A DNA stretch of 49,979 bases, the filler included, from Stramenopiles sp. TOSAG23-2 (lineage: Eukaryota), in the NCBI GenBank assembly GCA_900128395.1. It is 2 parts of 2 records of this genome, joined end to end, with 100 filler letters (N's around TTAATTAATTAA, not from the genome) between each part and the next. Parts side by side here need not be neighbours in the genome. Positions count along the whole stretch, not along the records: positions 1 to 25,026 come from LT649458.1; positions 25,127 to 49,979 come from LT649459.1. One strand, written 5' to 3'. The notes under the pieces are model-generated. The model did no database searches. It was not told where the DNA came from and worked only from the letters and a program-made list of their open reading frames with translations. The position numbers were made by a program, and so were the translations under genes. Shown piece by piece: positions 2,300-40,992 of the stretch (position 1 is the first letter of the stretch; each line of letters starts with the position of its first letter).

Positions 2300-2348
2300 T
2301 GGTTAAAATCTAAAGTTATGAATAATTTTACTTCCCGTGGAAAATTAC
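2300..2348 (-). repeat. Truncated copy of the convergent-spacer dispersed repeat
   Basis: TGGTTAAAATCTAAAGTTATGAATAATTTTACTTCCCGTGG is the reverse complement of the shared end of the copies at 9935, 17653 and 37741. Confidence 0.8.
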
Positions 2349-2826
2349 TAAAAAATATTTAATAAAAAGGGGGGGAATATACCAAAAAATATATAATTTT
2401 TGTCTCAATACTTCGTATCATTATTATCATATATTTTTAATATTTAATGTACGAAAGCGTATGTACGATTTTAATTAAATGCCAATTTTATTACTTTCAT
2501 TTACTTCGTGTACTTTATTTTTATATGTGTGATATAATTTAATTTACGCATGTGTGATATGCATGTGTGAAATTTTAAAAATTTATACTCCAACAAAACT
2601 TCCTAAAAACAGGGTGATAAATATAGATTTAGTATACCAATAAATGTATATTTATATAGGGAGATATTATAATATCATAAAATCGGATATTCTGATATTT
2701 TCATTCAAATTAACATTGCCATTTTTGGATTTTATGAATTATCCAACATATAACTATCAAATATATATAAATGGTATACTAAATCTATACTTATTAGAAC
2801 ACATGTTTTTGGTTTTTGGGAAATAA

Positions 2827-2899
2827 GGTTTGCCTGGTTTGCCTGGTTTGCCTGGTTTGCCTGGTTTGCCAGTTTGCACGCGTTTGCCAGTTTTGCCTG
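2827..2899. repeat. 9-bp tandem repeat (GGTTTGCCT)x5 with a degenerate tail
   Basis: Four exact units from 2827, then GGTTTGCCA, then GTTTGC-containing degenerate units. Confidence 0.95.
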
Positions 2900-3028
2900 T
2901 GGTTTTTCGGTCGTACGTGCGTACGGATAGGAATATTATTATCATGATGGGTAGAAATATAAAAAATTATTATGATAAAATATATTCGTACATAATATTT
3001 TACTTGTTGATCCCCATCATAACCCACT

Positions 3029-3778
3029 TCAATCTATTATTGTCATCAACATAAATGCTGCTAATGGTTTAAATCGAAATTTTGTTTCAATATTAATTGA
3101 AAGAATAGATGTGATCATGATTAAAAACGTAGTCATGTCTTTTGTTAAACCATCCTTATTCAATTTCAATGTGCCAGCAATACCCATAGTAATCCAAAAT
3201 ATAAATCCAAAACCATACAACAGTGCCATTGTTCGTATTTGGCCAATCATAAATTGAAAAAGGCCTCGAGGGAACATAGCTTCCAAAATCGATTTGTTGC
3301 TGGATCGTCTCAAAAAGTATCCATATATTTTCCAACCAATGCTGTAGGCCCAATATACGATTAAACTTCCATTTTCAATATTTCGATACATAGCATACCA
3401 ACCACATTTCAATGCTTTTTGAAAAATACTTTGATTTCCAACAAATTCTTTCCATGCATAATCCCAAGGTATGGCATTCCCTTCGTAACTCCTAATGAGA
3501 TGCACAGCATTATCGTCCCCTGCCAATTCTGATACATAATTTCTTGTGCTTCCCCTGGGATGGTGGTAGTCATTTAAAATTTTCCAGACGGATACATATG
3601 TGGCAGCACCAAATAAAGCAACGGATCTCGCCGGTGACAAGTCACCTAAAAAATCGTTCATATAAGCAATAAACGCTAGTTTTTTTCCCCATCTACCATA
3701 TCTTGTAGTTCGTTTTTCAATGTAGTATTTCCATGTATTTGGGGGTTTCCCACCTTTGTTTAATTCTTCTTTCGACAT
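3029..3778 (-). CDS. Membrane protein, possibly TMEM135/PXMP4-like
   Basis: 249-aa ORF with several hydrophobic segments. The C-terminal SINIETKFRFKPLAAFML resembles the TMEM135 'SILIEKKSRR.ELALY' pattern; the resemblance is weak. Confidence 0.45.
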   Translation of the reverse strand: MSKEELNKGGKPPNTWKYYIEKRTTRYGRWGKKLAFIAYMNDFLGDLSPARSVALFGAATYVSVWKILNDYHHPRGSTRNYVSELAGDDNAVHLIRSYEGNAIPWDYAWKEFVGNQSIFQKALKCGWYAMYRNIENGSLIVYWAYSIGWKIYGYFLRRSSNKSILEAMFPRGLFQFMIGQIRTMALLYGFGFIFWITMGIAGTLKLNKDGLTKDMTTFLIMITSILSINIETKFRFKPLAAFMLMTIID

Positions 3779-4564
3779 GTCTCGTAATATAATAATGATT
3801 CCAATAAAATTAATCTATAAAACTTGCAGCAATAATATTGTAACATAAGTTCGATGTAATGTTATATTTATACTTATGTATACTGGTATAATAAATATAA
3901 ATATTATTTTTATGTAGTATTTTATTATTATGTACTATTGCACTACCTAGTCTATTTTTTAACAAATTATTATTATTAAAGGCTGAATATATTACTCGTA
4001 TAGAATTGAAATTACAAATTACAACAAATAATTAATTACAACAACAAAAAAATAACTAAAATTAGTATTATTATACAGTAGAGTCCAGGTAGTCCAGTAG
4101 TCGTCTAGCACTCTATTAACTATTATTAATTTTATTATTTCAAAAAATCGCTTATGGTAAGCTGGTATTATCTAAGCCAGTTCGGCTAGAGCTAGGAGCT
4201 AGCTATAATAGCTGGCCCGCTGGCTAGCTCTAGCAAGGAGCTACACAAGCTCTAGACACAATCTTATTGGTGAACAAAAAAAAAAACACCGCCACGCCCC
4301 CACCCGCCGACTACCAGACTACTACTATTATATTAGTCAATAAAAGTTGAATAATATAATAATAATAATTGTTAGTAAATATTTAAAGACACTGTTGTAC
4401 CAAATATACAACTTATACATAGAACAATATTATTTCATTGTTAATGTATGTACAATATTAAACAGGCACGCAGAAATATAAAAAGTAATATATTTGTGCT
4501 GGTATTTGAGTACTTTTACAGGGAAACGTAGAATAATTGTATATTTATACAAACATATACCACA

Positions 4565-7500
4565 ATGTTAAATCGTACTATTGCTAGTTACTTTATTTTC
4601 TGTTATCTAGTTTTTCAGCAACAAGTATATGAGATCCACGCATTTTGTCGTGCACTTCCTTGTAAGTAATATATTTATAAATATATCATTGTTCTCGGCA
4701 CTACTAAGTTTAAATTGTTTTCTAACATACAAATTGTTTTATTGCATTAAATACTACATAAAGCCGGTGGTCCATTATCTGCCACGGCGCTGTTGAGACA
4801 ACACACTCCCGATGGAGAAAATTGTATGTTGAGAATACATCATCCAACACAATCAGATGCTACGGCAACGGCAAACACAATTGCTAGAGGTATATTATTT
4901 TTAGATACTGCAGCCTCAAACGCAGCTGTTATACAGGTAATTCCAAATACAGTTGGAAGTGCTACAGAAGGAAGTGCGCCGTTGATGGAATTTTTTGTCG
5001 GTGGTGACGGGAACGCGTTTAAATGGATGACGATTAGTACCATGGGAAATATTAACGTACTAGGTGCTTCGTCAACTATGACAGTAACAAATGATTTTAC
5101 TGTAAATGCTGATACCATATTTGGTAATTTAAAAACAACAGATACAATGACAGTAAACTCTGTATCCACGTTGATGGGAGTCACAAGTATACAAAATACG
5201 TTTCATGTTAAAAACCAAGATGCTAGTACAACAATGTTTACAGTGACTGAGAATAACGGTAATGTAGATGTTTTAGGTGACAGTGCACAAATGACAGTAA
5301 CAAATGATTTTACTGTAAATGCTGATACCATATTTGGTAATTTAAAAACAACAGATACAATGACAGTAAACTCTGTATCCACGTTGATGGGAGTCACAAG
5401 TATACAAAATACGTTTCATGTTAAAAACCAAGATGCTAGTACAACAATGTTTACAGTGACTGAGAATAACGGTAATGTAGATGTTTTAGGTGACAGTGCA
5501 CAAATGACAGTAACAAATGATTTTACTGTAAATGCTGATACCATATTTGGTAATTTAAAAACAACAGATACAATGACAGTAAACTCTGTATCCACGTTGA
5601 TGGGAGTCACAAATATACAAAATACTTTCAATGTGAAAAACCAAGCTGGTAATACTGTGCAATTTACGGTTGCTGAAAATACCGGTAACACAGAAGTATC
5701 TGGTACATTGGATGTTACCGGTGCAACTACACTTAGTAGTACAACTAGTTCAGTTGGTAATTTTGATGTAGCTACTAATAAATTTACTGTTACTGCGGCA
5801 AATGGAAATACTGCTGTGGCTGGTACATTGGATGTTACCGGTGCAACTACACTTAGTAGTACAACTCGTTCAGTTGGCAATTTTGATGTAGCTACTGATA
5901 AATTTACTGTTACTGCGGCAAATGGAAATACTGCTGTGGCTGGTACATTGGATGTTACCGGTGCAACTACACTTAGTAGTACAACTCGTTCAGTTGGCAA
6001 TTTTGATGTAGCTACTGATAAATTTACTGTTACTGCGGCAAATGGAAATACTGCTGTAGCTGGTACATTGGCTGTTAGCGGTGCAACTACACTTAGTAGT
6101 ACATTGGCTGTTACCGGTGCAACTACACTTAGTAGTACAACTCGTTCAGTTGGCAATTTTGATGTAAATACTGATAAATTTACTGTTAATGCAGGAACTG
6201 GAAATACTGCTGTAGCTGGTACATTAGATGTTAGTGGCACCACTACATTAGCAACCGTATCTTCAGGTACATGGCAAGGAACTTGCGTTGCAAATGCTTA
6301 TGTTTGCGATTCAACTCAATGGATAGACACTGGCGGTACAGGTTTAACAAAAACCGGGACTTCGTTGAATGTAGATGCTTCCCAAACACAAATAACATCT
6401 GTTGGTACTATTGGTGCAGGTACATGGCAAGGAACTTGCGTTGCAAATACTTATGTTTGCGATTCAACTCAATGGATAGACACTGGCGGTACAGGTTTAA
6501 CAAAAACCGGGACTTCGTTGAATGTAGATGCTTCCCAAACACAAATAACATCTGTTGGTACTATTGGTGCAGGTACATGGCAAGGAACTTGCGTTGCAAA
6601 TAATTATATTTGCGATTCAACTCAATGGATAGACACTGGCGGTACAGGTTTAACAAAAACCGGGACTTCGTTGAATGTAGATGCTTCCCAAACACAAATA
6701 ACATCTGTTGGTACTATTGGTGCAGGTACATGGCAAGGTTCCAAAATTCAAGATAATTACATCCAATCAGCAGGGACTTGGAATAGTAAGGTTGGCACTG
6801 GTGGTACAGGGTTAACGAAATCTGGAACTACATTAAATGTAGATGCTTCCCAAACACAAATAACACAAGTGGGGACTATTAATTCAGGTACATGGCAAGC
6901 TTCTTCAATTCAAGATTCCTATATTGCATCCCAAGGAACTTGGCATGGTAAAATTGATACTGCTGGAACTGGTTTATCCAAGTCTGGGACTACGTTGTCA
7001 GTGAGCATGACAAGCAATGTGGAATATAGGATAGGTGATATTGCTGCGGGCAATGAAGGCGATTTTCAATCAAATTCGGCTACGTATGCAAGTAAAGGAA
7101 GGCTTGCTGCAACTTGGATTTATAGCAATGCTATAGAGGCACCAGATGAGCGGGGTTCTGCAAGCACAGCTATCATGATTGGTGATTCAGGTTGGAGCAG
7201 TGCAGATGGTGATAAGATCATGTTTGTGACTTCTGGGCGCACAAGCACTTATATAGATAGTAATGGAGACTATAACCCCTCAGACATTCGATTGAAAACA
7301 AATATTGAACCTTTTCCTGCAAATATATCTGCCTCAGAAATCTTGAGTAATGTCGAAATATTTTCATACAATATATTGATTAAAGACGATAATGGCACGG
7401 AGACTGCCCATGAAACGCGCGTATGGGGTTTCTCTGCTCAAGATTTAGCATCGAAGACTGAAAATATTGTTCGCGAAGGTGGGGAAGATAAATTTAAAGA

Positions 7501-7777
7501 GCCATGGACTTACAGTGGCAAAAGTTTAGAAGGATTCTTTGTCCAAGCAATAAAAGAGTTAAAATTAGAAAATAAAGAGCTCAAGTCCGAAATAAAAGAT
7601 TTGAAGCAACGTAGGCGATTGAACCCAGATGATTCTGGTAAAGCCCATAATTCGCCGAAAGAGTCCGTGGATACATTTTCAAATATGCTTGCCATTATGG
7701 AACGAATGGAAACGTTGTCGTTTCAGAATACAGAACTTTTGCGTCGGATTGAAGAGTTGGAAAAAAAACATATATAA
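4565..7777 (+). CDS. Secreted tail-fibre-like repeat protein with C-terminal intramolecular chaperone (Peptidase S74/ICA) domain; 2 exons (4565-4661, 4764-7777)
   Basis: ATG 4565 encodes a signal-peptide-like MLNRTIASYFIFCYLVFQQQVYEIHAFC. A GTAAGT donor at 4662 and AAG acceptor ending 4763 splice in frame into the 994-aa ORF. Three Thr/Gly/Val-rich repeat blocks follow, then SDIRLKTNI (Ser codon 7280), WGFSAQDL and a coiled coil. Confidence 0.8.
4662..4763 (+). other. Spliceosomal intron (102 nt, phase 1)
   Basis: GTAAGT donor, TTCTAAC branch-point-like motif near 4720, AG acceptor. Removal joins T+CC (Ser) and restores the frame of the downstream ORF. Confidence 0.8.
5078..6900 (+). repeat. 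Intragenic tandem repeat blocks with periods 213, 120 and 153 bp
   Basis: 213-bp units start at 5078, 5291 and 5504. 120-bp units start at 5702, 5822, 5942 and 6062. 153-bp units have the ATGGCAAGG landmark at 6271, 6424, 6577 and 6730. Units are nearly identical at nucleotide level. Confidence 0.95.
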
Positions 7778-8676
7778 GCAATTGTGATAGTGTATGTTGC
7801 AATTTTCATATCATACCAACATATTTTTTCTTATATCTTATTAATATGTTATGCAAGCTTTATCAAATCCATATGTTATATATGCAAGGCATCTCAAAAT
7901 CAACTATAGTATACACGGCAGGCGCATATGATAAGGTACTTATAAATACAATTTCAAACATTGAAGAATGTGATAAAAAACATCCAATGCGCTATGAGAG
8001 GCTTAATGATTTCGACTAGTGTTAAAAACAAAATTCCAAAAAATTATAAGGATGTTTGCCGAAAATATGATAAATAATTAAATATCCGCAAAAAATACGT
8101 ATTTAGAAAATTTTAGGAGTTTGTATACTTTAAGTATATTTTTATATATTTTATGCTATGAAGTATACCTCTTTGTTAAAATAAAGTGTATAATAATAAA
8201 AATATCGAAATTTGTCGTATTATTTAGTTTCCTAGATATAGTGAAGCTATTATTATAAATTAGAAGGGTCCTTAAACTAAAATTTCAAGAAAATGCATCA
8301 AAAAGTTTGTACGGAAAAAAAAAAAAAAAATAGCAGGTAAATACTATCAGATCACAAATTTTGTACGGAATAAGAAAAAATGCAAATGAAAATACATGGG
8401 AATAGCATTAGCATATTTTGGGATAAAAAAAGCTTACGTAGAAGAATGGGCCTTTATAGTCATTGCTTTACCAGGAGGTATAAGAATAAAGCACTAAAAA
8501 AAAATGATAATAGCTGGATAGCCAGGATAGATAATTACACATGTATTTTTTTGTCTATTTACACATAAGTAACTGGAAAAAGATACACATATCGTATCTC
8601 TATGTATACATATATATACATTAATTAAATCCAGTCGTTTTATCAATTATTTATACAGAGAAGAACAATAACAAAT

Positions 8677-9603
8677 ATGGAACGGACAGAGTTATTGCAA
8701 CCAATTATGCCCCTTAAAGAATCAGCTGTTATAACTTTGAAATGGTGTATTATTGGTTTATTAGCTTTATGCGTTGCTGATTATTTAGTTGCAAGGCATT
8801 ACAAAGGACGTTATTTTATATTGCATGTAGCTGCCAATACATTCATATCCATTGCATCATTGAATGATTTGTGGTTCGTTATGACGGATACCATAGGTGC
8901 TTTAAAGGAATTTGAAGCAACACTTGTACCTCTTGGTTTAGTGTTTTCCATTCATTTTTATCACATGCTTGCACCAGGGTTCAAATTGTATTACGTGGAC
9001 TGGTTGCACCATGTAGTTATGGTTATTTTTGGTTGCCCATTACTTGTACTGGCTAAAATTGGCCCATTGATGAATTTTTGCTTTTTCTTCATATGCGGCG
9101 TACCAGGTGGATATGATTATTTTATGCTTGTTTTAGTAAAAAATAAAGTTATGAAACCATTAACAGAAAAGCGACGTAATAATATGGTACAAGTTTGGGT
9201 TCGTGCAGTAGCTTTGAATATCTCTGTCATGTTGCTTTATATTCAAAATCAAGTTCAAAAGGCAAATGGCCATGATATATCGGCATATTTGCTCTTTATT
9301 CGTGCTGCTTTAATGCTTATTACATATTGGAATGGAAATTATTTCATGGAACGCGTTTGTGGCAATTATTATGTTACTGCATATAAATTGCGTGAGACAT
9401 GGGAGAAAAATAAAGTTAGTGATCCAAAAGATAGAAAAGATTTATCTAGTATGGCAAATTCAGAAGATTTACGCAAGAAGGTATTGGAAGATGAAGTTGA
9501 TGAACACCCATTGCCTGATGGTGTTCAAATGCCTGGGCATACCCGTAAAACTAAAATTTCTAGTATGGGAAAAATCTGGAATTACATTCGTGTCGGTTCT
9601 TAA
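8677..9603 (+). CDS. TLC (TRAM/LAG1/CLN8)-domain multi-pass membrane protein
   Basis: 308 aa with multiple TM helices and the motifs YFILHVAAN, DWLHHVVM, CGVPGGYDY and YWNGNYF. Confidence 0.65.
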   Translation: MERTELLQPIMPLKESAVITLKWCIIGLLALCVADYLVARHYKGRYFILHVAANTFISIASLNDLWFVMTDTIGALKEFEATLVPLGLVFSIHFYHMLAPGFKLYYVDWLHHVVMVIFGCPLLVLAKIGPLMNFCFFFICGVPGGYDYFMLVLVKNKVMKPLTEKRRNNMVQVWVRAVALNISVMLLYIQNQVQKANGHDISAYLLFIRAALMLITYWNGNYFMERVCGNYYVTAYKLRETWEKNKVSDPKDRKDLSSMANSEDLRKKVLEDEVDEHPLPDGVQMPGHTRKTKISSMGKIWNYIRVGS

Positions 9604-9934
9604 AAATCTATAGGAACAACATTATATTTTGGTATGAACATTACCATTAGTAATATATATATGCATTATATATTATTTTAAAAAATTATTATTTTTTAAT
9701 ATATTTTATTAATATATTTAAAAATGATAAAAATATTTTATTAATATTTTTATATAAATAAAAATAAGAAAAGCAAGAAAAGAAGATATCATATACGTAT
9801 AAAAGATGAACGGAAGAGAAGTGAATCGGTCTATTAAAAAAAGTCAAAATTACTGCCAATATGGATTCTTTCGAACTTTAAAAAAATATACGCGTACAAA
9901 TAAAAAATAAATTAGCAACCATTACTTCGTATGA

Positions 9935-10107
9935 TAGAGTATGCATATTGGTTTACAGAGGTGCATTAGAGCGCTTTACTATATACGAAGTATAGTAGGC
10001 CGATAGAAATATTATTCTTGAGATTGAGTATTGAGCATATGATATGCATATTACTTAGCACGGGGAAGTAAAATTATTACGAGTATTTAAAACTTCGATT
10101 TTAACCA
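9935..10107 (+). repeat. Convergent-spacer dispersed repeat copy
   Basis: GTTTACAGAGGTGCATTAGAGC...TACTATA..TATAGTAGG...GATTGAGTATTGAGCA...CACGGGGAAGTAAAATTATT...GATTTTAACCA. Confidence 0.9.
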
Positions 10108-10415
10108 TGTTCCATGTTATCATTAATAAAATTTAAAATTTAAACACTATATATCGTATCTTTTCTCTTTTGTAAAAAAACATAATCATATTAAATATCA
10201 TATTTTGTGTACCATATATCATATATCATATTTAATATTATAATATATATATATATATATATATCCCCTCTGATGCCCTTCAGCATACTGATTTCGTACG
10301 TCTCTCGTCTCTCTCGGACGTATTTTTGTAACAAAATACGAAGCAATTATATTATATATATATCATATATATATAAAAATTAAATTATATATATGATACA
10401 TCGTATATATTTTAT

Positions 10416-12678: not shown

Positions 12679-13140
12679 AAATGTAAAGGTGCGACTTGTA
12701 AGCCTATATTTTTAATCTATATGTCTGTTACATACGTTTAAGAGCTATGAGAATGGTATAACTTTAAGCACAGACAGGATAAAAATATGAAGAAGTAAAA
12801 ACGTAATAGCTTTTTATTACTGATGTCTATTTTGGATATATTAATGATATATATATATATGATATATATATCATAACATGAAGTGTGTGAGAGAGAGGAG
12901 ATGATTGTATTTTTACGACTTTTCGTATCAGTATTGATATTAATTTCAGGAGTGTATTTATAATATGTTTTTAGCACATGTGTAAATTTTGATGTCTTCT
13001 AAAAAAAAATATGCAATATATATATATTATTTCATTTTAATAAAAATAGATGCGAGATGATGTTTAAAATCTGATTTAAGTTATGTACGTCCAGTGTTTA
13101 TATTATGATATATATATCATATCATATCTCAGGAGAGATT

Positions 13141-17480: not shown

Positions 17481-17832
17481 GATAGAGTATTGAGCATAAT
17501 ATTTATCGCACGTGGAAGTTGATTAGGTGATTAAAACCGCGGCTTTTTGCCACAACCGTGCACTTCGAGATCTTTCTCCGACTAGTTACCGGTTGTTGTT
17601 CGCAGCAGGATCTTTCACTTTGATAGCCTCGCCGCTTTCGAGTGAACCCGACGAAGGATAGAAACCTACTCATGCTTGTAGAGTATTAGTTTGCAGACGT
17701 TCATTAGAGCTTTACTATAGTAGAGGATTGAATATTATTCCTGTGAGATAGAGTATTTTGAGCATAGTAATTTACCATGTGGGAAAGTAAAATTATTTTA
17801 ACTTATAGATCTTACGCGTAGATTTTTAAGCA
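17481..17832 (+). repeat. Longest copy of the convergent-spacer dispersed repeat, with an extra GC-richer 5' part
   Basis: 17653-17810 matches the reverse complement of 21770-21940. 17481-17519 duplicates 17747-17788. Confidence 0.85.
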
Positions 17833-18073
17833 TTCCATAATACGAGTACACGAGAGTATATATATTTTTATTTCTCTTACTCAATAAATATATATTATAT
17901 ATATATATATATATTATATTAGTTTTTAATAATATCATATATACGTACATCATACGTATCATACTTCGTACGAACGTATATTTTTTATATTTTTTATTAT
18001 ACCGGGCGACATCATCACACAAGAACAGGCTTTATGCCAAGGCTAGGAAAGAAAATTACAACAACGGAAAACT

Positions 18074-21607: not shown

Positions 21608-21769
21608 AGAAAAAGATAATTCGTACATTCGTATATTTATGTTACAAACGACAATTACGTTTGGTGTGAGAGAGTGTTGGAAAAATTCTTTTTTTGTGTG
21701 TTGTTTCCAAACATTTTGTTTTTTTATAAAAAAAATTAAAAAGTGATTTTAATATATTAAATTAAATGA

Positions 21770-21940
21770 TGGTTAAAATCTAAGTTCATAATAATTTTAC
21801 ACTTCTCGTGTTTAAGTAATATGCTCAATACTCAATCGCAAGAATAATATGCTATCCTACTATAGTAAAGCTCTAATGCACCTCTGCAAACTAATATGAT
21901 ATGGTCATACTCTACAAGCACAAGTAGGTTTCTATCCTTC
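21770..21940 (-). repeat. Convergent-spacer dispersed repeat copy
   Basis: The reverse complement reads GAAGGATAGAAACCTACTTGTGCTTGTAGAGTAT...GTTTGCAGAGGTGCATTAGAGCTTTACTATAGTAGG...GATTTTAACCA. Confidence 0.9.
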
Positions 21941-22190
21941 CAACATGTTCGAACGTTGAACGCGTTGGACATATTAAATTAATATAACTCTAGACTTGTT
22001 TTAAATAATGAGTTCATATTTTTTTAAAATACAAATGATGTGCGCCGTGCTTTTTTTAAAATATATAATTTTGGTATATTTTTAAAAAACTTCTCTCTTC
22101 TCTCTGTACACCATGTAGAAACTCTTTTTCCTATATCCTCTCATTCACTTTATCATTTTTAAAATTATATTTATATATAACTTAATCATT

Positions 22191-30418: not shown

Positions 30419-33418
30419 ATGAAGGTATGTCTGCTAACTTTAATAATTAGCTTAGTCATCCCGTCGCTTGCCTACGAACAGCCAACTTGTCGCGCGCATG
30501 AGGGAACTGTCCTCTCCTTCTGCAATGGCTCTCCGTTCCGAAAATGGGGCGTAGGCCCCGAGGGTGAGGAGCAGGCAATCGCGAACTGCCAGTGGGCTGC
30601 TAATAGTCAAGAGTGCATACGCAACACGACCGTTGTCCTCGATCCGTTCACGCTCCGCTCGATCGGCAGGGGTGCAAATGCCACCATCGATCGCATGCAG
30701 TGGTTTGGTGGGCACTGGAACATCTACAAAAGCGGAATTCAATGGCGAGACGAGGATGTGGAGCTCTTCCACGACCGCTACCACGCGCACCCAGGCCGAT
30801 CCTTCTACGTATCCTACCGCATGTCACAATGCGTGGAGGATTCTGCTCGCCCGGGCTTTGTGGACGTGTCCTCGCTCATCGCCTCCTGTGCCAATGCGCG
30901 GCAGTGGAGTCAACTCGCCTGGCCCCTAGATGCAGTGGACATGATCGTCAGCTCCAAGCCTGACCAGCTGTATCCAAACTCCTGTGGCCATCGCAATGGC
31001 CAAGCTCCTAATGGCTTCATGCCAGGTTCGCACGCGGCGGCGGCTGAATTCTTTGCGCTTTATTACCAGCACTGCATGCCACCCACAGCGCAGAATCGGG
31101 TGTTCATGGAGGTCTCCAATGAGTGCGATGTTAAGACCTTCCCTACCGCGTGCAATTCGCCCTGGTCCGAAATGGTTAAGCTACATGCTGCGGTGGGCGA
31201 CGCGATCCACAACGCATACGACAATGCGACAGCGTTGCCACGCCCCATTGTCTGTGGCCCAACCGAAGCTTTCCCCGAGTACCAACGAAAGGACTTCCGT
31301 ACATGGCGCGCTGGCGGGCAGCTCTCCGAGTTTCTGGCAGGCACCGTCCGTAACTCGTCTATCGACTGCTTGAGCACACATATCTACTCGACATACCAGG
31401 TGACGGCCAATGCCACAGGGCGTGATTCGAACACAGATCCGTTCAGCTCCAATTACGTCGCGCGCGAAGTAAATAATGTGGACGCCATTCTGGATATGCA
31501 GGAAGCAGGGATGACGGCAGAAGGGGCTGCGGCGGCAATACTCATTTCCGAGTATGGTGCGGCTTTCAAGGACAAACTACTCTACTACCACCCGGCGCAC
31601 GATTTCTGGATCTTGCGTGCCGTGAACACAATGTTGATGACATTTCTGGAGCGGCCGGATCGTATCCTGAAGGCGCTGCCCTTTATCGTAGATAAGGCTA
31701 CGTGGCACGTGCAGGGCAGTCAAAACAATGCCTCGCAGTCCTACCCACAGGCAATGTGGCGCAAAGTGAACAACGAGTGGCAGATTACACACCTGCACAA
31801 GTTCTATGGAATGTGGCGCGACTTCGGTGGGAAGCGCTTCCCCGCACGAAGCGACCATGCCCAGGTACAAGTACATGCGGCAGTGAGGCACGTAGCTGCA
31901 CTTGCGAATTGGACGGTGGCAGTGAATAATGCGGACCATCTTGTGCCTACGAGGGTGCATCTCGCCTGGCCCCTGCTACCCACAGGCGCCACCATCGTTG
32001 GTGTCAGCGTGCGAAGGTTGGCGTGGGACTCGGTGGAAGAAATACCCACGATGACGGATACTCATGAAGAACAGAGTGTGTTGCCGACGATACTCTTGCT
32101 TGCCCCCGCCGAGCTTGCTCTCGTAACCGTGCACGTTGAGGCGGCAGCAGCAGCAGTGCTTGCCGCGACTAAGCGCATTAACACGCTCACGTTTCCCAGC
32201 CCACAGCAACTTGTACCGCTGCCCACCACGGCAGCCGCCGCCAACAACGTTCCCTTCCGCTTCCTCGGGGTGCTCGCAGGCGGTGCCACGCCCCTTAGTG
32301 TTCGCGTCAGTCTGGGTGGGCCGGCTGAAAACCGCACTGCCATCCTCATGAAGCTTAACATCGTAGTGAACGGCGTGGCTTGTGTTGTCGATCCTACGCA
32401 GCATATCGGAGGTCAGCAGCATAAATCGCCGCAATTGGGTTCCTTTTTTGGAGGTTTGGAGGTGCTGGTGCCAATAACCGCAGTGACGCGAGGCCCAAGG
32501 CCGGGATTTGATGCAATCGTGAAGGTGTGGTCCAACATGGCGGTAGATTTGGAAGGCGATCCTGTGGTGGTGAGTACGGTGGCACTGTTGGTAGAGAACA
32601 CGACAACAATCACGACGTTCACCACATCAACAGAGCTACCTACCACTACGTCGCCAAGTGTTAGTAAGACCACATCAACACCAGCGCAGCCCAGTATTAG
32701 TACCACCACATCATCAAGTATTATTAGTAGTACCACATCAACATCCGAGCCATCCAGTAATTCTACCGCATCATCAAGTATAAGTACCACCACCACGTCA
32801 TCAAGTATTATTAGTAGTACCACATCAACATCCGAGCCATCCAGTAGTTCTACCGCGCCATCCAGTAGTTCTACCGCATCATCAAGTATAAGTACCACCA
32901 CCACGTCATCAAGTATTATTAGTAGTACCACATCAACATCCGAGCCATCCAGTAGTTCTACCGCGCCATCCAGTAGTTCTACCGCATCATCAAGTATAAG
33001 TACCACCACCACGTCATCAAGTATTATTAGTAGTACCACATCAACACCAGAGCCATCCAGTACAAGTACCACCACATCAATACCAAAAACTAGTACACCA
33101 AACCCGTCAAGCATTACACCCGTGCCGTCAAGTGACGCTATTATTACGACATCTAAAGGAAACGTACAAAACACCACTGTTGTTTCTGTGAAAGATTCTA
33201 ATACACTATTTTTATGGATTTTCATTAGTGTGATCGGTGTGATACTTGTTGTAGTGTGCTGTTGTGGATTTTTGACCTTACGAGGAATAGATAGAAGACC
33301 CGATCATATACATAAAAACTTGAATAGCTGGAAAATGTTAACACCTGTTGAGCAGAGTGGCAGTAATGCATACAGAGATGGCCGAGGGGTAGAACTGGGG
33401 ACATATCATAAATCATAA
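30419..33418 (+). CDS. GH86-like beta-porphyranase/beta-agarase with signal peptide, Ser/Thr stalk and TM anchor
   Basis: Motif order matches GH86 porphyranases as I recall them: EVSNE, AFPEY...F..W, DCLSTHIY, N.DAILDM.E, ISEYG, FLERPD.I.KALPFIVDKA.WH, KFY.MW....G.R. Both clan GH-A glutamates are present (codons 31121 and 31550). Confidence 0.8.
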   Translation: MKVCLLTLIISLVIPSLAYEQPTCRAHEGTVLSFCNGSPFRKWGVGPEGEEQAIANCQWAANSQECIRNTTVVLDPFTLRSIGRGANATIDRMQWFGGHWNIYKSGIQWRDEDVELFHDRYHAHPGRSFYVSYRMSQCVEDSARPGFVDVSSLIASCANARQWSQLAWPLDAVDMIVSSKPDQLYPNSCGHRNGQAPNGFMPGSHAAAAEFFALYYQHCMPPTAQNRVFMEVSNECDVKTFPTACNSPWSEMVKLHAAVGDAIHNAYDNATALPRPIVCGPTEAFPEYQRKDFRTWRAGGQLSEFLAGTVRNSSIDCLSTHIYSTYQVTANATGRDSNTDPFSSNYVAREVNNVDAILDMQEAGMTAEGAAAAILISEYGAAFKDKLLYYHPAHDFWILRAVNTMLMTFLERPDRILKALPFIVDKATWHVQGSQNNASQSYPQAMWRKVNNEWQITHLHKFYGMWRDFGGKRFPARSDHAQVQVHAAVRHVAALANWTVAVNNADHLVPTRVHLAWPLLPTGATIVGVSVRRLAWDSVEEIPTMTDTHEEQSVLPTILLLAPAELALVTVHVEAAAAAVLAATKRINTLTFPSPQQLVPLPTTAAAANNVPFRFLGVLAGGATPLSVRVSLGGPAENRTAILMKLNIVVNGVACVVDPTQHIGGQQHKSPQLGSFFGGLEVLVPITAVTRGPRPGFDAIVKVWSNMAVDLEGDPVVVSTVALLVENTTTITTFTTSTELPTTTSPSVSKTTSTPAQPSISTTTSSSIISSTTSTSEPSSNSTASSSISTTTTSSSIISSTTSTSEPSSSSTAPSSSSTASSSISTTTTSSSIISSTTSTSEPSSSSTAPSSSSTASSSISTTTTSSSIISSTTSTPEPSSTSTTTSIPKTSTPNPSSITPVPSSDAIITTSKGNVQNTTVVSVKDSNTLFLWIFISVIGVILVVVCCCGFLTLRGIDRRPDHIHKNLNSWKMLTPVEQSGSNAYRDGRGVELGTYHKS
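32690..33080 (+). repeat. Mucin-like Ser/Thr stalk with 108-bp tandem units
   Basis: TTCTACCGCATCATCAAGTATAAG recurs at 32761, 32869 and 32977. Confidence 0.9.
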
Positions 33419-33576
33419 AATAAAAAAGATTAAAAAAATACTCTTAGAAAAAGTATGTGTAGTAAAATAATAATATGTGAGAACAAATTAAATTTAATAT
33501 TTTACGAAAAGTTATATTAATTTTAATTTTAAATCTATTGACACACCCAGTCTGTACACGTCCCTTCGTACATGAA

Positions 33577-35010: not shown

Positions 35011-35762
35011 GTTTTTTTGTTTTTTTTTATGTTATTGTTTCACTTGTTTTTTGTTGTTTTGTTGATTTTGATATAAAAAGTATGTATGCTTCCCAAATTA
35101 GAAATTCACCAGTTGCTACTTCACTTTGTGTTTTTTCTTAAGTTCTATATATGACGCTAGTATTTTTTGTGTAATCCATACCATAATAATCTGATAAAAT
35201 GTGTATCTCATTTATAATCCATTATTACATTAATGATATGATAAAATATTGTAGAGATGCAATTTATCCGATTATTATGGTATGGATTAGGTTACTTATT
35301 CACCACGAATTTTAGAGGAGGGCACGAGGAGCTTTATTAGACCTGCTGGGCCTGTGGAAGTGGTAGAGATGCTGAAATTTTACGTCGTATTATCTTCTAT
35401 ACTATTAAGTATACTAAAAAACTTTGTACCGAAAATTGTCCTTACTTCACAGAAAATTACTTTGCTTTTTGTTTAAAATAAACTCAGGAAACAACAACAA
35501 AAATGACAAAATGACAACCATGATTAATTGTATTTGATAGGTAATATAGTGTGTAAATACCGAAAACTGTCCAATCGCTGTATTAGAAGAAATCTCAGTC
35601 ACAATCAGTCTTACGCACTTTAACTTTTTTATAAAAAATATAAAAAAAGATATTTCCATTCCAGTATATAAGTGAACAGAAGTATAGTATAGAACAAGTT
35701 TCAATAATAACAAATAATAACAAATATCTAATATAAACGATTTAAAATAGTCTATAACAACC

Positions 35763-36695
35763 ATGTCACGCGCATTTTTAAAACGACATTTCACATTAAA
35801 TGCGGAAACGGATTTATCAGCGCCAGTTAGTTTATTATCTGTACAAGATTATCCAAAATTAAAATTATCTTATTATCAATCTGGAAACAGTATCATTGCA
35901 AGGATTACATTTAATGATCCAAAAGCATTAAATGCCATTTCAGATCCTGTATTGCAATCATTCAACAAAGCATTGTCACGAATTGAGAATGGTGTTGATC
36001 ATAAAGCAAGATGTTTAGTATTAAGTGGTGAAGGAAGAGCATTTTGTGCAGGTGCAAACATTGGTGGTGGAGGCGGCGGTGGCAGAGGTGGTGAACCACA
36101 AGATCTACAAGTCTTTCCAGATACTGCTGGATTACCAGGAGCAGGATCTTCCTTAGTCACGAAATACCATCCATTGATGATAAGGTTGCGTGATTTGAAT
36201 ATGCCAATTGTTGCAATATGCCAAGGACCAATTGCTGGAGTTGGTATGAGTTTTGCTATGGCAGCGGATATGTGTATTTGTTCCGATGATGCATATTTTC
36301 TTCAAGCCTTTCGTAACATAGGGTTAGTACCAGATGGTGGATCTACGTATTTATTGCCACGTAAAGTTGGCATGGCAAGAGCAATGGAATTATCTCTTAT
36401 GGGTGAAAGATTACCTGCACAAGAAGCATTGCAAATAGGTCTTTGTAATCGTGTTGTTGCGAGAAAAGATTTAGATGATTTTGGTATGAAATTTGCTGCA
36501 AGAGTTGCAACTGGCCCAACAAAAATGATGTCGATGACACGTAAATTATATTGGAGTTCATATAATAATACATATGAAGAACAGATGGCACAAGAGGCAA
36601 GGTTTCAAAATGTTGCAGGAGCTTCAAAAGATGCTGGTATTGGTGGAAATGCATTTCGAAATAAGGAAAAAAACCCAAAATTTATTGGAGAATAA
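35763..36695 (+). CDS. Enoyl-CoA hydratase/isomerase (crotonase family, PaaG-like)
   Basis: ITFNDPKALNA, GEGRAFCAGA, GPIAGVGMS, IGLVPDGGSTYLLPR. Confidence 0.9.
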   Translation: MSRAFLKRHFTLNAETDLSAPVSLLSVQDYPKLKLSYYQSGNSIIARITFNDPKALNAISDPVLQSFNKALSRIENGVDHKARCLVLSGEGRAFCAGANIGGGGGGGRGGEPQDLQVFPDTAGLPGAGSSLVTKYHPLMIRLRDLNMPIVAICQGPIAGVGMSFAMAADMCICSDDAYFLQAFRNIGLVPDGGSTYLLPRKVGMARAMELSLMGERLPAQEALQIGLCNRVVARKDLDDFGMKFAARVATGPTKMMSMTRKLYWSSYNNTYEEQMAQEARFQNVAGASKDAGIGGNAFRNKEKNPKFIGE

Positions 36696-37126
36696 AAATG
36701 TACAAAGGGTGTCATTAACATAAATATATTATGATATATATGATATATAATTTGTTAATAGGCATATGCATAGGCATATATATATAAAATGTTCCTATAT
36801 AAACGATCCACGGCCCACGGCCCACGGTAACAACGGCGTCTAAAAAGTAGAGAGGCCATCATGGATACTTGTAAATAGTGAATCGTGCAATCCATTAAAA
36901 TATAATCGCGTATATATATTATAAGTACAATATTTAGTATTCTAATCTATACAACATATTTATACCACTTTAATTTTAACATATATTTCTACTTTATTTA
37001 ACTTTTTATTGAAAAACATGTGTTTTGTTGTTGAAAATGGTAGATAGAAATAAATTAATACAAGATAAAATATATACATATCGTTATATATTTTAATGTT
37101 TATTAATTGATTAATATTATATAATA

Positions 37127-37693
37127 ATGATATATAAACGAATGAAAACTTTTATCGATGTAAAAATCATATTGCCGTTTAAAAAAGAAATACAAAATGG
37201 AATATCAGAAGAGTTATTAACAAAATCAATTTCAATTGGGTTTACAGGTGGAATTTTTCCAATTCCTGGTTTAACTTTATTGTGTTCTTTTCTATTGCAA
37301 TATTTATTTCGTGGCTCATTTATCATATGTCAATCCGTTAATGTCATTGTGACACCATTACATTTACTTTCTTTGAAAACATTTTATCAATCAGGGATGA
37401 ATTATATATTACCTTCGTCCTATACTATGTCAATTGACAATTTAATGAATATTATTTCAACCCATTCAATTTTTGAAACGTTACAACATTTTTTTGCATA
37501 TATCTTAGGGGCAGTTTGCATTTGGTTTTTGCTTTCGCCATTCTTATTAGGATTCTCTTATTTAGCATCAAAGCCATTATCGCGAGTTATATTGAAAAGG
37601 TTTAAACAATTACGAAGTAGTAGTAGTAGTAGTAGTAACAATAAGAAGAATAACCAAGTAGAACAAAGTAATAATGTTTTAAAATCTGTGTAA
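37127..37693 (+). CDS. DUF2062-like membrane protein
   Basis: QNGISEELLTKSISIGFTGGIFPIPGLTLLC pattern followed by TM helices. Confidence 0.7.
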   Translation: MIYKRMKTFIDVKIILPFKKEIQNGISEELLTKSISIGFTGGIFPIPGLTLLCSFLLQYLFRGSFIICQSVNVIVTPLHLLSLKTFYQSGMNYILPSSYTMSIDNLMNIISTHSIFETLQHFFAYILGAVCIWFLLSPFLLGFSYLASKPLSRVILKRFKQLRSSSSSSSNNKKNNQVEQSNNVLKSV

Positions 37694-37740
37694 GCCGTAA
37701 GAGGTGATGTACATGTAGCTTATACGCATATTATATATAT

Positions 37741-37874
37741 AGTTTGCAGAGGTGCATTAGAGCTTTACTAATAGTAGGATAGAATATTATTCTCTTGTGA
37801 TTGAGTATTGAGCACACATTATTTACTACACGGGAAGTAAAATTATTAAATTATATAACTTCAGATTTTAACCA
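37741..37874 (+). repeat. Convergent-spacer dispersed repeat copy
   Basis: AGTTTGCAGAGGTGCATTAGAGCTTTACTAATAGTAGGATAGAATATTATTC...GATTGAGTATTGAGCA...CACGGGAAGTAAAATTATT...GATTTTAACCA. Confidence 0.9.
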
Positions 37875-38158
37875 GATTAAGATCATTTATTAATATATAA
37901 TAAAAATATTTAATCGCGTAGTTTTCAAATATCATGATGTGTATATATATGTATATTTTCATTTTTTTACTTTTGGCACATATAAAACTTATTTCTCATG
38001 ATTAAATTCCTACTCTCCAGAAAGAATTACAATTAATATATAAAAAAAAATAATTTTGATTCAGCAACAACAAAAATGAAAAACTCAAAATACACACACA
38101 AGATGCGAGACCCCACCATATATATATATACTATTCATGCATCACCCCTTTTTGTTTC

Positions 38159-39763
38159 TCAATCAAATGAATGTTTTCGAAACAAATAATTTGATTGCAT
38201 TGCTTCTACATCAACACCTAAATTTTCCAATGTATTTTCCAATAACAAAGTATATTCTTTTGTATCCATTCGACCTAATAATTTTTTCAAATTAGGTGGG
38301 ATTTGATCAAATGTACTTGTTTGTTTATCATTAAAATTAACATGATCAACAAACCATTCTTGAAAGATCGTCAAATACATCAACGGCCTACGTTTTGGTG
38401 TAGTATTAGCTGTGCCGCGATGAAGAATTCTTAAATCAAAGATAACAGCGGATCCCGTTGGAGCTGGTGTTGTTAATGTTTTTCCACTATGACGACATTC
38501 ATTTAATATCCAATTTCCTAATTGACGTTGTTCTTTTTCAGAGTTTGGACATTGTATATGAGAACCACTTAAAAATTCAGTTGGTCCCATCTCTTCAGTA
38601 ACTTTTACTAACGGTACAAAAAGCACCATACCATGTGGAGGTACCTGTTTTTGTAAATTTGCATAATCAAATAAAAATCCTGCATCACGATGCCAATGCT
38701 GCTGTGGTGTATTTCCTAAGGATGTCACGGATGAATGTGTATCAATCTCCAAACGTTTCGTACCTAATATATTTTGCATCATAGGCATAAATAATGTATT
38801 TGATACAAATTCTTTATCACTAAATGGTGTTTTCAATGGATTAACTAATTCATAACGGCCTGGGCTACGTTGCTCAGATGATGTCGTGTTTGTGTTTGTT
38901 GGATCCTCTGCGATCGTTTCCAAATATGTATCAACAATTTTCGATTGTTCTTTTTTCATTTTTTTCATTAACGCACGTGTAAATAATTTTTCCAATACTA
39001 ATACACCACATATTTTCAATATTTTAAGGCCACGTTTAAACTTTTTAAACTTTAAAATACCTTCCTCACGTTCTTTATTTGAAATTTTTAAACGAATATT
39101 TTCATCCGTACATAATTCATTGATTTGACGTTTTAATATTTTAAATTTGTTTTTTTTATTGCGTTTGCGTGATGATGATGAACTGCTACTACGTCTTGAA
39201 TTTTTATTGTTGTTCTTATTTCTATTATTATTATTATCACCATCATCGTCATCATCTTTGTCATCCATATCATTATCATCATCCAACATATCATCATCTT
39301 CATCATCCCATTCTCCATCAGCAGATATCTCACCAGAATTTATTTTCTTGTTTTTACTGTTACTACTGCCACCAATGTCTCGTATGTAATTCTTTGCAAG
39401 CTGTAAATTGTCTGCCGTGTTGCCATCTCGTTTCAATGATAAACTTCGTTTGAATAATTTTGCGGATTCTTTTAATTCTTTAATATTACCATTATCAACA
39501 CCATGTCTCATTAAAGCAACACCTAAATTATTATAACCCATTGCATCGTATGGATCCAACTCAACTGCTCTACGAAAGTCAAGTATGGCACCGTCTAAAT
39601 TTCCCGCGTTACTTTTCTCAATTGCAGCTGATTTATAATCACCAGCAGTTTGTATAGGTAATTGAAACGAATGTACAGGTAGTATAATAACTAGAAAAAT
39701 TGCCATCATTATCATACATGCCATTCTAATAATTATACCATTATTATTATTAATATTATACAT
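38159..39763 (-). CDS. Signal peptide + TPR + PhyH-family Fe(II)/2-oxoglutarate dioxygenase
   Basis: First ATG at 39763. Hydrophobic leader, TPR (FRRAVELDPYDAMGYNNLGVAL), acidic/basic linker, then QHWHRD, GPTEFLSGSH, IFDLRILHRG and RRPLMY. Confidence 0.85.
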   Translation of the reverse strand: MYNINNNNGIIIRMACMIMMAIFLVIILPVHSFQLPIQTAGDYKSAAIEKSNAGNLDGAILDFRRAVELDPYDAMGYNNLGVALMRHGVDNGNIKELKESAKLFKRSLSLKRDGNTADNLQLAKNYIRDIGGSSNSKNKKINSGEISADGEWDDEDDDMLDDDNDMDDKDDDDDGDNNNNRNKNNNKNSRRSSSSSSSRKRNKKNKFKILKRQINELCTDENIRLKISNKEREEGILKFKKFKRGLKILKICGVLVLEKLFTRALMKKMKKEQSKIVDTYLETIAEDPTNTNTTSSEQRSPGRYELVNPLKTPFSDKEFVSNTLFMPMMQNILGTKRLEIDTHSSVTSLGNTPQQHWHRDAGFLFDYANLQKQVPPHGMVLFVPLVKVTEEMGPTEFLSGSHIQCPNSEKEQRQLGNWILNECRHSGKTLTTPAPTGSAVIFDLRILHRGTANTTPKRRPLMYLTIFQEWFVDHVNFNDKQTSTFDQIPPNLKKLLGRMDTKEYTLLLENTLENLGVDVEAMQSNYLFRKHSFD

Positions 39764-40159
39764 TTTTATAATAATGTATATATCTTTTTTTTTTGTCGAA
39801 ACAACACCAAATGTATATATATATATATATGATATATTAGGTGTATCGCTTTTAAACAAGATAGATAGATAGGTAAATAAATATTCGTTTCTCTCAAGAA
39901 TCTTATTATTTATACACTTATGTACAAGTTGTCACACACAGCTATTTCTACATATTTATCTTTTTATTATTCCAATCTAATAAATCATCAATTATTATTA
40001 ATCATTCAATTTACTTCAACTTTTTTCACTTCTTCTTTTACTTGAATGAAAAATGAATAATAATATAATGATGGAACATACTAATAGTAGTAAAAGTAAA
40101 TTATTTGTATATTTATATATATAGAAACAATTTTGAAAACGATAACAACAATAATAAAC

Positions 40160-40403
40160 AAAACAACACAAAGGAAAATTATTACAACATGTACTCCTCG
40201 TTAGACGATGAACCACAAAGAAGAAAATCACAAAGAGGTTCCGTAGTTGCTGGATTAATATTTGGTATAGCGTGTTGGTTAAAAACAACACAAAGGAAAA
40301 TTATTACAACATGTACTCCTCGTTAGACGATGAACCACAAAGAAGAAAATCACAAAGAGGTTCCGTAGTTGCTGGATTAATATTTGGTATAGCGTGTTGG
40401 TTA
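40160..40403. repeat. 122-bp perfect tandem duplication over a gene 5' end
   Basis: 40160-40281 = 40282-40403; ATGs at 40189 and 40311. Confidence 0.95.
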
Positions 40404-40808
40404 ATGGTATCAATTATGGTAAATAATAATGAAGATTGTAAATTTCGTTTTTTGTTTGCTTTGCCATTTATTGGTGCTGTGATTGGATTTGTCATGATAA
40501 ATGTAATATCATGGGAAAGTATGGATGCGCAAAATGCATATCAATATACAAACCCAAATGTTCCATGTATTAATCGTTCAGTTATGATATTTGGTACCCT
40601 TATTGCATTATCTTGCATTGGTGGTAGTGTTGCTATATTAGTTAACTGGTATGCAGAACCGCAATTTAAAGATATTACACCAAAATGTGATCCAGAACCA
40701 GGTGATATTGGTGATGGTTTATTAAATGTTACATCTACTGTTTTAGTTTTTATTAGTGCATGGGTAATGCGATTAGGCAATACACCACTTGGTGATGATG
40801 ATTATTAA
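40311..40808 (+). CDS. Vps68/TMEM50 (UPF0220)-like membrane protein
   Basis: 165 aa from ATG 40311, four TM segments, VAGLIFGIACWL and IGFVMINVISWE. Confidence 0.7.
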   Translation: MYSSLDDEPQRRKSQRGSVVAGLIFGIACWLMVSIMVNNNEDCKFRFLFALPFIGAVIGFVMINVISWESMDAQNAYQYTNPNVPCINRSVMIFGTLIALSCIGGSVAILVNWYAEPQFKDITPKCDPEPGDIGDGLLNVTSTVLVFISAWVMRLGNTPLGDDDY

Positions 40809-40992
40809 CAAAACGGAAGAATAATATATATATACGTCGGAATATATATACGTATAACCTTAGATTTTTAACCAATCAAGTAATGCGATTAGGCAATACA
40901 CCACTTGGTGATGATGATTATTAACAAAACGGAAGAATAATATATATATACGTCGAATATATACGTATAACCTTAGATTTTTAACCAATCAA
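40764..40992. repeat. ~115-bp tandem duplication over the same gene's 3' end
   Basis: 40764-40879 vs 40880-40992 differ only by 3 nt of indel. Confidence 0.95.

Follow-up and report, generated by a model that had tools for sequence, protein, structure and literature searches.

Truncated copies of a probable R2-type LINE in spacers downstream of genes, mostly convergent ones, in a stramenopile genome

Results

The window, a stretch of 49,979 nucleotides (filler included) joined from two records of the Stramenopiles sp. TOSAG23-2 assembly (GCA_900128395.1), contains nine convergent, eight divergent and four tandem intergenic spacers. A dispersed repeat, hereafter referred to as family A, occupies seven of the nine convergent spacers and none of the 12 others, as an earlier note on this DNA had counted; five of the occupied spacers were recovered by profile matches and two by terminal remnants. 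The profile, which was based on 32 copies from other parts of the genome and gave no match in a reversed 757-kb control, matched the copies at the positions listed before. Their places were right, but two limits had to be moved: the 17.6-kb copy begins at 17527, not 17653, and the 21.8-kb copy reaches 21970.

The longest copy in the window (17527..17832, + strand; 243 bits over 17527–17812), which we read as a 5′-truncated LINE, comprises on translation the end of an ORF (17527–17661; 44 codons, stop TAG) and then a 3′ UTR of ~170 nt, and it is 83% identical to the family A ORF of locus L090. The least diverged copy (21767..21970, − strand; 184 bits over 21970–21771) carries the last ORF codons and the 3′ UTR, ends with the terminus AACCATCA and shows 91% identity to a close copy. 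This insertion is flanked by a 12-bp target-site duplication (TSD), with the 5′ copy at 21971..21982 and the same word as the 3′ copy at 21754..21765 (both − strand). Other 3′-UTR copies lie at 37740..37874 (+; 84 bits over 37740–37873) and, in degenerate form, at 9935..10107 (+; 75 bits over 9946–10106). The spacer orthologous to the latter site in the relative L092 has a 1.23-kb copy in the identical orientation. A terminal 40-nt copy was detected at 2300..2342 (−; 27 bits over 2339–2300 with the terminal profile, E 2e-7).

The remnant at 13057..13084 (−) is probably real, with an alignment score of 32 and less than 8 bits with the profiles; a terminal-remnant score of 30 was reached in 0/96 real divergent spacers and 2/300 reversed controls. 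Of the two further remnants that the earlier note had listed, the one at 40855..40878 (+; score 31) is present, but it is the first copy within a 113-bp tandem duplication, and the sequence at 40968..40991 (+) is its duplicate, not a separate insertion. Two fragments had been overlooked: an internal coding fragment from the endonuclease region (17988..18071, +; E 6e-6, 79% over 24 aa), which adjoins the stop codon of a kinase gene, and a short, weak internal 3′-UTR fragment (17481..17515, +; 11 bits). Since coding as well as UTR fragments are present, and longer copies reach upstream into the ORF end, the element is not purely non-coding, as it had been described. A second truncated repeat, tail C, is represented by matches to its end motif at 17872..17883 (−), in the same convergent spacer as the longest copy, and in a convergent spacer at 41107..41118 (−); this motif occurs in 4/102 convergent, 3/102 tandem and 0/96 divergent spacers.

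The copies have one end in common and are variably truncated at the other, as previously noticed: matches fall on moving upstream from the common end, with first-look candidate counts of 654 in the last 171 nt, 107 in the next 156 nt and 48 in the next 211 nt. The 3′ end was fixed in 77 junction rows, a few of which are chance matches. TSDs of 8–13 bp were found, the longest word common to both flanks averaging 8.8, against 6.7±0.25 in shuffled pairs (0/200, n=44); two of the 44 rows are tandem duplications, and the mean is ~8.1 without them. At an orthologous empty site (L104 versus L138), the duplicated word is present once. The truncation gradient and the 8–13-bp TSDs therefore point to 5′-truncated LINE insertions. 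The 3′ terminus, AACC(A)TCA, is followed by variable AT-rich filler and lacks a poly(A) or simple-repeat tail; several LINE families with a restriction-like endonuclease (RLE) likewise have no poly(A). The targets are unrelated AT-rich flanks, and the duplicated words have an AT-rich start in common, without a motif. Such unrelated flanks are not those of elements that enter a single site in a multicopy target, such as R2, Utopia or SLACS/CRE1. Targeting of tRNA genes was also rejected, there being no tRNA gene in 44 loci.

The copies are almost certainly dead-on-arrival, 5′-truncated insertions of a protein-coding R2-type LINE with an RT and a C-terminal restriction-like endonuclease. Family A copies extend into an ORF of more than 530 aa, which is collinear with an RT-bearing ORF of a second family, B, in the same genome (32% over 424 aa, E 1e-54; also 35% over 175 aa). 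In family B, the endonuclease lies downstream of the RT in a single open frame of 872 aa, and this collinearity suggests the same arrangement in one ORF for family A. At locus L043, the 3′ UTR of family A directly follows an RT ORF of the same strand. This RT had no Pfam match; RT motifs are present in the collinear family B ORF, whose RT stayed under the Pfam cut-off (E 0.0055), and a profile of the element RT pieces matched seven long proteins, six of them with RVT_1. The motifs follow the order expected for R2-type LINEs (C..H..C, HD, RTDI, YFD/YVD, K..Y, PF..T.G) in diverged form, without the canonical CCHC spacing or RG.W; the RLE LINE set comprises CCHC, RH, D..D/E, K..KY and RG.W (PMC4838377). 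No continuous family A copy from RT to 3′ end was found: no single sequence carried both the family A RT and its endonuclease, and a chain of overlapping fragments leaves a gap of ~5 residues. The RT motifs may resemble those of the CRE clade.

The C-terminal domain of family A, as modelled by AlphaFold (pLDDT 68.7), is predicted to have a PD-(D/E)xK-type endonuclease fold. Compared with 48,161 chains, the model matched R2Tg (Z 9.3) and R2Bm (Z 9.1) best (rmsd 3.8–3.9, 154–159 residues aligned), and after the R2 proteins came other PD-(D/E)xK nucleases from Z 8.1. With Foldseek, ranks 1–7 were all R2, the best E being 0.013 and none reaching 0.001. A PDB sequence search with the element gave no match, and an ESM Atlas search gave unnamed clusters only. 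Among the best 150 of 306 matches to representative proteins, there were only fragments of 53–272 aa, and none of 1,976 candidates was a long homolog of the family A middle region, which is weak evidence. The earlier reading as a 5′-truncating retroelement in convergent spacers was thus largely right, but the copies derive from an RLE LINE that encodes protein and do not form a non-autonomous family of their own: a SINE or other non-autonomous retroposon was rejected, since the copies run into the ORF and have no tRNA or Rfam head, and no Rfam match was found in the window. Readings as a Helitron, a DIRS or a Penelope-like element were set aside in view of the restriction-like endonuclease and the TSDs.

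The TACTATAGTA palindrome, said earlier to be kept as a hairpin, is exact in 32/67 copies, and many variants disrupt its symmetry; in conservation across the 67 copies, its 10-nt window came 50th of 131. The two halves belong to a longer stem, formed with upstream sequence, in which compensatory change breaks the palindrome, and we rejected the hairpin as a conserved feature. A structure with compensatory change is present in the 3′ UTR of family A, five of the six double-change cells falling at one column pair.

Families A, B and C were counted per spacer type in a blind sample comprising 756,696 bases. Family A was present in 8/102 convergent, 4/95 tandem and 0/98 divergent spacers; the corresponding counts (convergent/tandem/divergent) were 14/1/0 for family B, 3/1/0 for tail C and 21/6/0 for the three together. 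The claim that the repeat occurs only between convergent genes was therefore too strong, with tandem spacers occupied too, and the 7/9 of the window is atypical, since ~8% of convergent spacers carry family A genome-wide. The bias itself withstood the alternative that copies are spread in proportion to spacer length (p 3e-10), and under a null weighted by AT runs the probability of no divergent copy among 27 was 3e-6. AT content as the sole cause was rejected (73% in convergent spacers versus 72% in others). With a model-free gene caller, divergent copies were again zero at three thresholds, and family A alone had 6–7 convergent versus 5–6 tandem copies. In related assemblies, after de-duplication, family A occupied 22 convergent, one tandem and no divergent spacers among 35, 25 and 27, respectively, so that all but one of its 23 two-sided sites were convergent.

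In tandem spacers, eight of 10 copies were closer to the upstream stop codon and two to the downstream start. Long copies were convergent in 22/23 cases (p 0.008 against a ‘per 3′ end’ model) and short copies in 8/12; against the same model, the blind sample alone showed no excess (25/31, p 0.09). Occupied convergent spacers were longer (median 497 versus 332, p 0.016). The placement rule is not a restriction to convergent spacers, as proposed before, but a position downstream of gene 3′ ends: copies lie in spacers with a gene 3′ end, mostly two, and none was seen in divergent spacers.

As a control, 14 other repeat families occupied 22 divergent, 14 tandem and one convergent spacer (Fisher 2e-11). 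Of the spacer classes, the divergent one is the longest, and 22/96 divergent spacers contain other repeats of 45–390 bp; this class therefore tolerates repeats. Since they may represent DNA transposons that seek promoters, or else promoter motifs, these control families are not neutral.

Discussion

We consider it somewhat probable (roughly 0.55) that the placement arises because insertion favours Pol II termination zones, with selection sharpening the result. By analogy with established RLE LINE biology, the element protein would bind the structured 3′ UTR, nick AT-rich DNA and prime reverse transcription at the nick, and reverse transcription would usually end within 50–600 nt. Termination zones could be preferred for their accessible or supercoiled DNA, for R-loops, or through tethering to the 3′-end machinery, and selection against long copies near promoters would presumably sharpen the bias. 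The placement may reflect an undescribed aiming at transcription-termination zones.

Selection alone might account for the same pattern, a possibility that we regard as doubtful but real: the same LINE would insert blindly save for a liking for AT-rich DNA, and purifying selection in a genome with a coding fraction of 0.71 would purge copies in genes and promoters, convergent spacers holding no promoter. The AT-rich targets without a motif agree with this, as does the stronger convergent bias of long than of short copies, which selection would yield; a LINE tail may also damage a promoter more than the control repeats do. Bacteria provide a precedent, with an excess of IS in convergent spacers in 68/116 genomes, but their divergent counts are lowered, not zero (PMC2942039), whereas here 22/96 divergent spacers bear other repeats, yet 0/96 a LINE remnant at score 30. 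Moreover, copies 95–99% identical to others are placed alike. It is very unlikely that the tails have been co-opted as 3′-end formation or mRNA-stability elements kept where transcripts end, akin to the bidirectional terminator or 3′-UTR element suggested earlier. They do sit where 3′ UTRs are expected, their structure shows compensatory change and the orthologous spacer in L092 also carries a copy; however, family A is missing from ~92% of the convergent spacers sampled, its presence varies between relatives (empty orthologous spacer, L104 versus L138), copies occur in both orientations with lengths that track truncation and no conserved module, and the 3′ UTR of an active LINE requires structure anyway, the double changes being concentrated as noted above. 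With the hairpin not conserved, the suggestion is unsupported.

The slimmest chance is given to an endonuclease that recognises a short motif overrepresented in 3′ spacers, such as CpG palindromes, which would make the bias one of sequence targeting. Most RLE LINEs are sequence-specific (PMC4640811), and TACG-N(0-3)-TA words occur at 4.2/kb in convergent, 2.0 in tandem and 1.4 in divergent spacers, with ATATCAT at 3.1 in convergent spacers versus 0.9–1.0 elsewhere. The duplicated target words nevertheless have only the AT-rich start and no motif, and palindrome density is similar in occupied and empty convergent spacers (5.2 versus 4.1/kb).

RLEs are encoded by the CRE, R2, R4, NeSL/Utopia and HERO clades of non-LTR retrotransposons (PMC4640811). 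The present element is like these LINEs in its RT, Cys/His region and C-terminal PD-(D/E)xK-type endonuclease (in one ORF in family B), its 5′ truncation, its structured 3′ UTR and its fold match to R2Bm and R2Tg. Unlike those that target rDNA, snRNA, spliced-leader or microsatellite sequences, family A is not tied to one repeated target, and it consists of hundreds of dispersed tails, without poly(A), whose placement tracks host gene orientation. Entamoeba EhLINE/EhSINE elements similarly have a restriction-like endonuclease, are non-site-specific and only intergenic, have TSDs and T-rich DNA nearby, and differ in insertion points between syntenic spacers of sister species; they are not known to show a gene-orientation bias, and SINE partners dominate there, whereas family A copies are truncated LINEs (PMC3118788). 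Leishmania SIDERs are also short, degenerate retroposon copies in gene 3′ regions, but they are reported to be extinct and to have a demonstrated regulatory function (PMC2323293, PMC5689007), whereas family A has near-identical copies.

Dictyostelium TRE3 and Skipper-2 resemble family A in using the downstream side of genes as a safe harbour in a gene-dense genome, but they use Pol III (tRNA) genes and a narrow window, the TREs with an APE endonuclease (PMC5006619), as against Pol II genes, a broad window and no tRNA genes for family A. Bacterial IS share the convergent excess and divergent deficit, but are DNA transposons with a milder bias that is attributed to selection (PMC2942039). Cryptococcus T1 and, in yeast, Hermes show that gene-orientation bias can arise at insertion; they are the mirror image of family A and similar to the control repeats, new T1 insertions being 63% divergent, 37% tandem and never convergent (PMC9942834). 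The targeted retrotransposons compared here aim at repeated sequences or tRNA genes, and no eukaryotic LINE restricted to the 3′ or convergent spacers of Pol II genes emerged from our search of open-access full texts.

Elements of this class are known already, and their tails are inert; any wider significance would lie in the placement. Should the bias be set during insertion, it would represent a new kind of safe harbour in gene-dense genomes, and an enzyme like that of R2 that reads transcription geometry, not sequence, would be relevant to R2 engineering for gene insertion. If it comes from selection, this is a clean eukaryotic case of the bacterial pattern, with two repeat classes dividing the spacer types almost fully. 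We tentatively propose that a group of marine-protist RLE LINEs has abandoned sequence-specific targets and aims at Pol II termination zones, best at convergent genes, which would serve as safe harbours throughout the genome and match, for Pol II, what tRNA genes offer to the elements that target them. The machinery of these LINEs would also jump to the 3′ end of a 1.08-kb non-coding RNA, RNA X, giving RNA–LINE chimeras.

Locus L101 was rejected as a second insertion at one host site, its common flank being a mobile sequence, X. Sequence X had no Rfam match, and elsewhere in L096 there were only two sub-threshold miRNA matches. Tandem duplications of the 113-bp type number 84 in 757 kb, with 25 within coding sequence and only two near family A, which rules them out as a feature of the element; the 113-bp-period duplication at 40855–40991 is probably an assembly artefact. 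Twenty sequencing runs containing the region were listed, six of which are RNA.

Placement of family A relative to gene orientation

We assessed placement in a blind sample of the host genome assembly, consisting of 20 contigs taken by number regardless of matches (C650-659 and C700-704 whole, and the first 20 kb of C1260-1264; 756,696 bases), with genes called by a codon model. Family A occupied 8 of 102 convergent, 4 of 102 tandem and 0 of 97 divergent spacers (p = 8e-4 by length; Fisher 0.007 for convergent versus divergent); three further sites at contig ends, having one flank only, were left uncounted. When family A, the related RLE LINE family B and tail C, a third truncated repeat, were considered together with the elements masked, the occupancies were 21/102, 6/95 and 0/98, respectively. 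The bias by spacer orientation holds beyond spacer length (p = 3e-10 against the length null), and the zero in divergent spacers gave 3e-6 against an AT-run-weighted null. A model-free caller, at three thresholds, kept divergent at zero and placed family A in 6-7 convergent versus 5-6 tandem spacers. Family B tails occupied 14 convergent spacers and 1 tandem spacer of the sample, and none of its divergent spacers.

A search of the genome itself gave 11 convergent, 4 tandem and 0 divergent family A loci, 30 of the 45 sites having at most one callable flank. Related assemblies, after de-duplication, gave 22, 1 and 0, respectively; before de-duplication, 83 of their 86 callable flanks were 3′ ends. 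These assemblies are not fully independent, because some are probably of the same species as the host assembly. The positional rule is real and strong. The earlier note had placed the repeat only between convergent genes; the convergent majority and the absence from divergent spacers stand, but tandem spacers are occupied too, so the rule becomes one of location downstream of gene 3′ ends, mostly in convergent spacers, with no copy seen in divergent ones.

Within the window, a profile built from 32 copies outside it in the same genome detected five family A copies and one fragment, with zero matches in the reversed 757-kb control. Two terminal remnants scored 31-32; a score of 30 was reached by none of the 96 divergent spacers and by two of 300 reversed controls. 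The occupancy given in the earlier note is upheld, with 7 of the 9 convergent spacers occupied and none of the 12 others. The remnants noted at 40855 and 40968 are present, but as one remnant inside a 113-bp-period duplication. Near-exact tandem duplications occur at window 40160-40403 and 40826-40991, and the 757-kb sample contains 84 similar ones, many with a period of 95-125 bp and 25 in coding sequence; these duplications are probably assembly artefacts. The convergent spacer orthologous to window 9604-10415 in a relative with ~80% DNA identity in genes (L092:5260-6830) carries a 1.23-kb copy with matching orientation, through either shared ancestry or repeated insertion.

Family A copies are very probably truncated tails of an RLE LINE

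The repeat had been described as non-coding; translation showed that the sequence upstream of GAAGGATAG is the end of an ORF. First-look candidates, which are not copy numbers, dropped upstream from 654 (716 by another query) to 107 and then 48. Family A had 19 matches in 757 kb, scaling to ~800 genome-wide. Family B adjoins a family A copy at L013. One end of its 872-aa open frame shows RT motifs, and the C-terminal part is homologous to that of family A (35% over 175 aa); RT and endonuclease lie in one frame (L023:5228-7860; L009:306-720; L040; L042). Using 55 loci from related assemblies, we extended the family A ORF to family B residue 332 (32% over 424 aa, E = 1e-54). For a structure model of the C-terminal 264 residues of this family A ORF (pLDDT 68.7, pTM 0.65), the top matches were R2 proteins (Z 9.3 and 9.1, rmsd 3.8-3.9), ahead of the following match at Z 8.1; Foldseek ranks 1-7 were likewise R2, none at E 0.001. 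At L043, an RT ORF 33.5% identical to the family B RT and lacking a Pfam hit leads straight into the family A 3′ UTR; a profile from such RT pieces retrieved seven long proteins, six with RVT_1. No continuous copy from RT to 3′ end was found among the loci searched. Family A is of an ordinary element class; it was judged to be neither a SINE nor a site-specific element of the R2 or Utopia kind.

Tail C comprises an ORF end, without a Pfam hit, and a 3′ UTR, and lies in 3′ spacers (window 17872-17883 and 41107-41118; L135:6740-7231; L104). Among other RT pieces of the genome (L044, L045, L047, L048, L050, L051), we take two to be DIRS-like and two gypsy-like from their appearance, and presumably there are one further non-LTR RT and a long ORF resembling telomerase RT.

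The 3′ end of family A reads AGATTTTAACC(A)TCA; AT-rich filler comes after it, and poly(A) is absent. The longest word shared between the flanks averaged 8.8 over 44 copies versus 6.7±0.25 in shuffled pairs (0/200), or ~8.1 once two tandem-duplication rows were dropped. Clear TSDs measured 8-13 bp, including 12 bp flanking window 21767-21970, and L138, whose flanking genes are ~90% identical, is the empty site of L104 with a single copy of the duplicated word. Targets are AT-rich without a fixed motif. These features fit target-primed reverse transcription as described for RLE LINEs (PMC4640811, PMC4838377). More than one piece is present at several sites (L004, L006, L009, L015, L017, L099, L106, L093), arranged in tandem or inverted, or combining A with B or C; of the 102 convergent spacers sampled, 3 contained both A and B (p = 0.08).

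Targeting and selection

Self-comparison of all sampled spacers yielded 14 other repeat families, which occupy 22 divergent and 14 tandem spacers but a single convergent one (for example C657:5170-5362, C658:31451-31585 and C704:17200-17460); four of nine checked families had MITE-like inverted arms. Divergent spacers therefore accept repeats, yet those sampled contain no LINE remnant, which favours a bias at insertion. We take targeting plus selection as the likelier explanation of the placement (probability roughly 0.55), in which case the insertion machinery would recognise termination zones. New T1 insertions in Cryptococcus are reported to show an orientation bias that mirrors that of family A (PMC9942834).

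Selection alone is a less probable account. It would accord with the convergent excess of bacterial IS elements, ascribed to selection in PMC2942039, and the other repeat families do not make a neutral control. Long copies were in excess of what a "per 3′ end" model predicts (22/23, p = 0.008), whereas the blind sample was not (25/31, p = 0.09). The occupation of divergent spacers by other repeats, with no LINE remnant among them, speaks against selection alone. Co-option of the tails seems improbable, and targeting of a motif still more so.

Family A resembles Entamoeba EhLINE in using a non-specific RLE (as described in PMC3118788) and Dictyostelium TRE3 in lying downstream of genes (as described in PMC5006619). 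Searches of the open-access literature brought up no eukaryotic LINE placed in this way; the element class is already known.

Fusions, 3′ UTR structure and other observations

Sequence X, a ~1.08-kb stretch ending at one fixed nucleotide (L094:125-1208), has no long ORF and no Rfam hit. Its fixed end is joined to family A copies at six truncation points (L094, L096, L097, L101, L022, L204) and to one family B copy (L203), X being almost complete in some fusions and shortened to 118, 352 or 975 nt in others; at L101 the end of X also follows the family A copy in reverse. X has six matches in the assembly, and in four of them a fusion with an A or B piece was observed. The fusions resemble WEIRD-LINE chimeras of Magnaporthe (as presented in PMC2104539) and U6-L1 chimeras (as presented in PMC6789731), suggesting template jumping or RNA ligation; alternatively, X may be the element's own 5′ end in inverted orientation.

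The central palindrome, which the earlier note described as kept as a hairpin, ranked 50th of 131 sequence windows in conservation over 67 copies; it is exact in 32 of them, some insertions preserving symmetry and many changes disrupting it. In a consensus fold of 14 hand-picked copies its halves pair with upstream sequence, and one A-U/G-C change in five sequences leaves that stem intact and the palindrome lost. Paired cells reached 98.6% (0/500 shuffles) and pairs with double change numbered 2 (192/500). Since the structure was derived from the same, related sequences on which it was tested, this pairing and covariation offer modest support for a predicted 3′ UTR stem. In the sample, convergent spacers have three times the density of CpG-containing near-palindromes (TACG-N0-3-TA) that divergent spacers have, and such words also occur as insertions within old LINE tails, including that near window 9980.

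The host assembly, of an AT-rich, intron-poor eukaryote, comprises 32.8 Mb in 9,146 contigs, the window being C1252 and C1253 across the N gap; sequencing runs containing it are mostly marine. A 983-aa repeat-rich protein (window 4826-7777, +) ends in an intramolecular chaperone domain, Peptidase_S74; the layout of this eukaryotic protein is like that of a phage tail fibre. A 999-aa protein without a Pfam hit (window 30419-33418, +), probably secreted or membrane-bound and possibly acquired, lies in a stretch of 53-56% GC versus 34% for the window.
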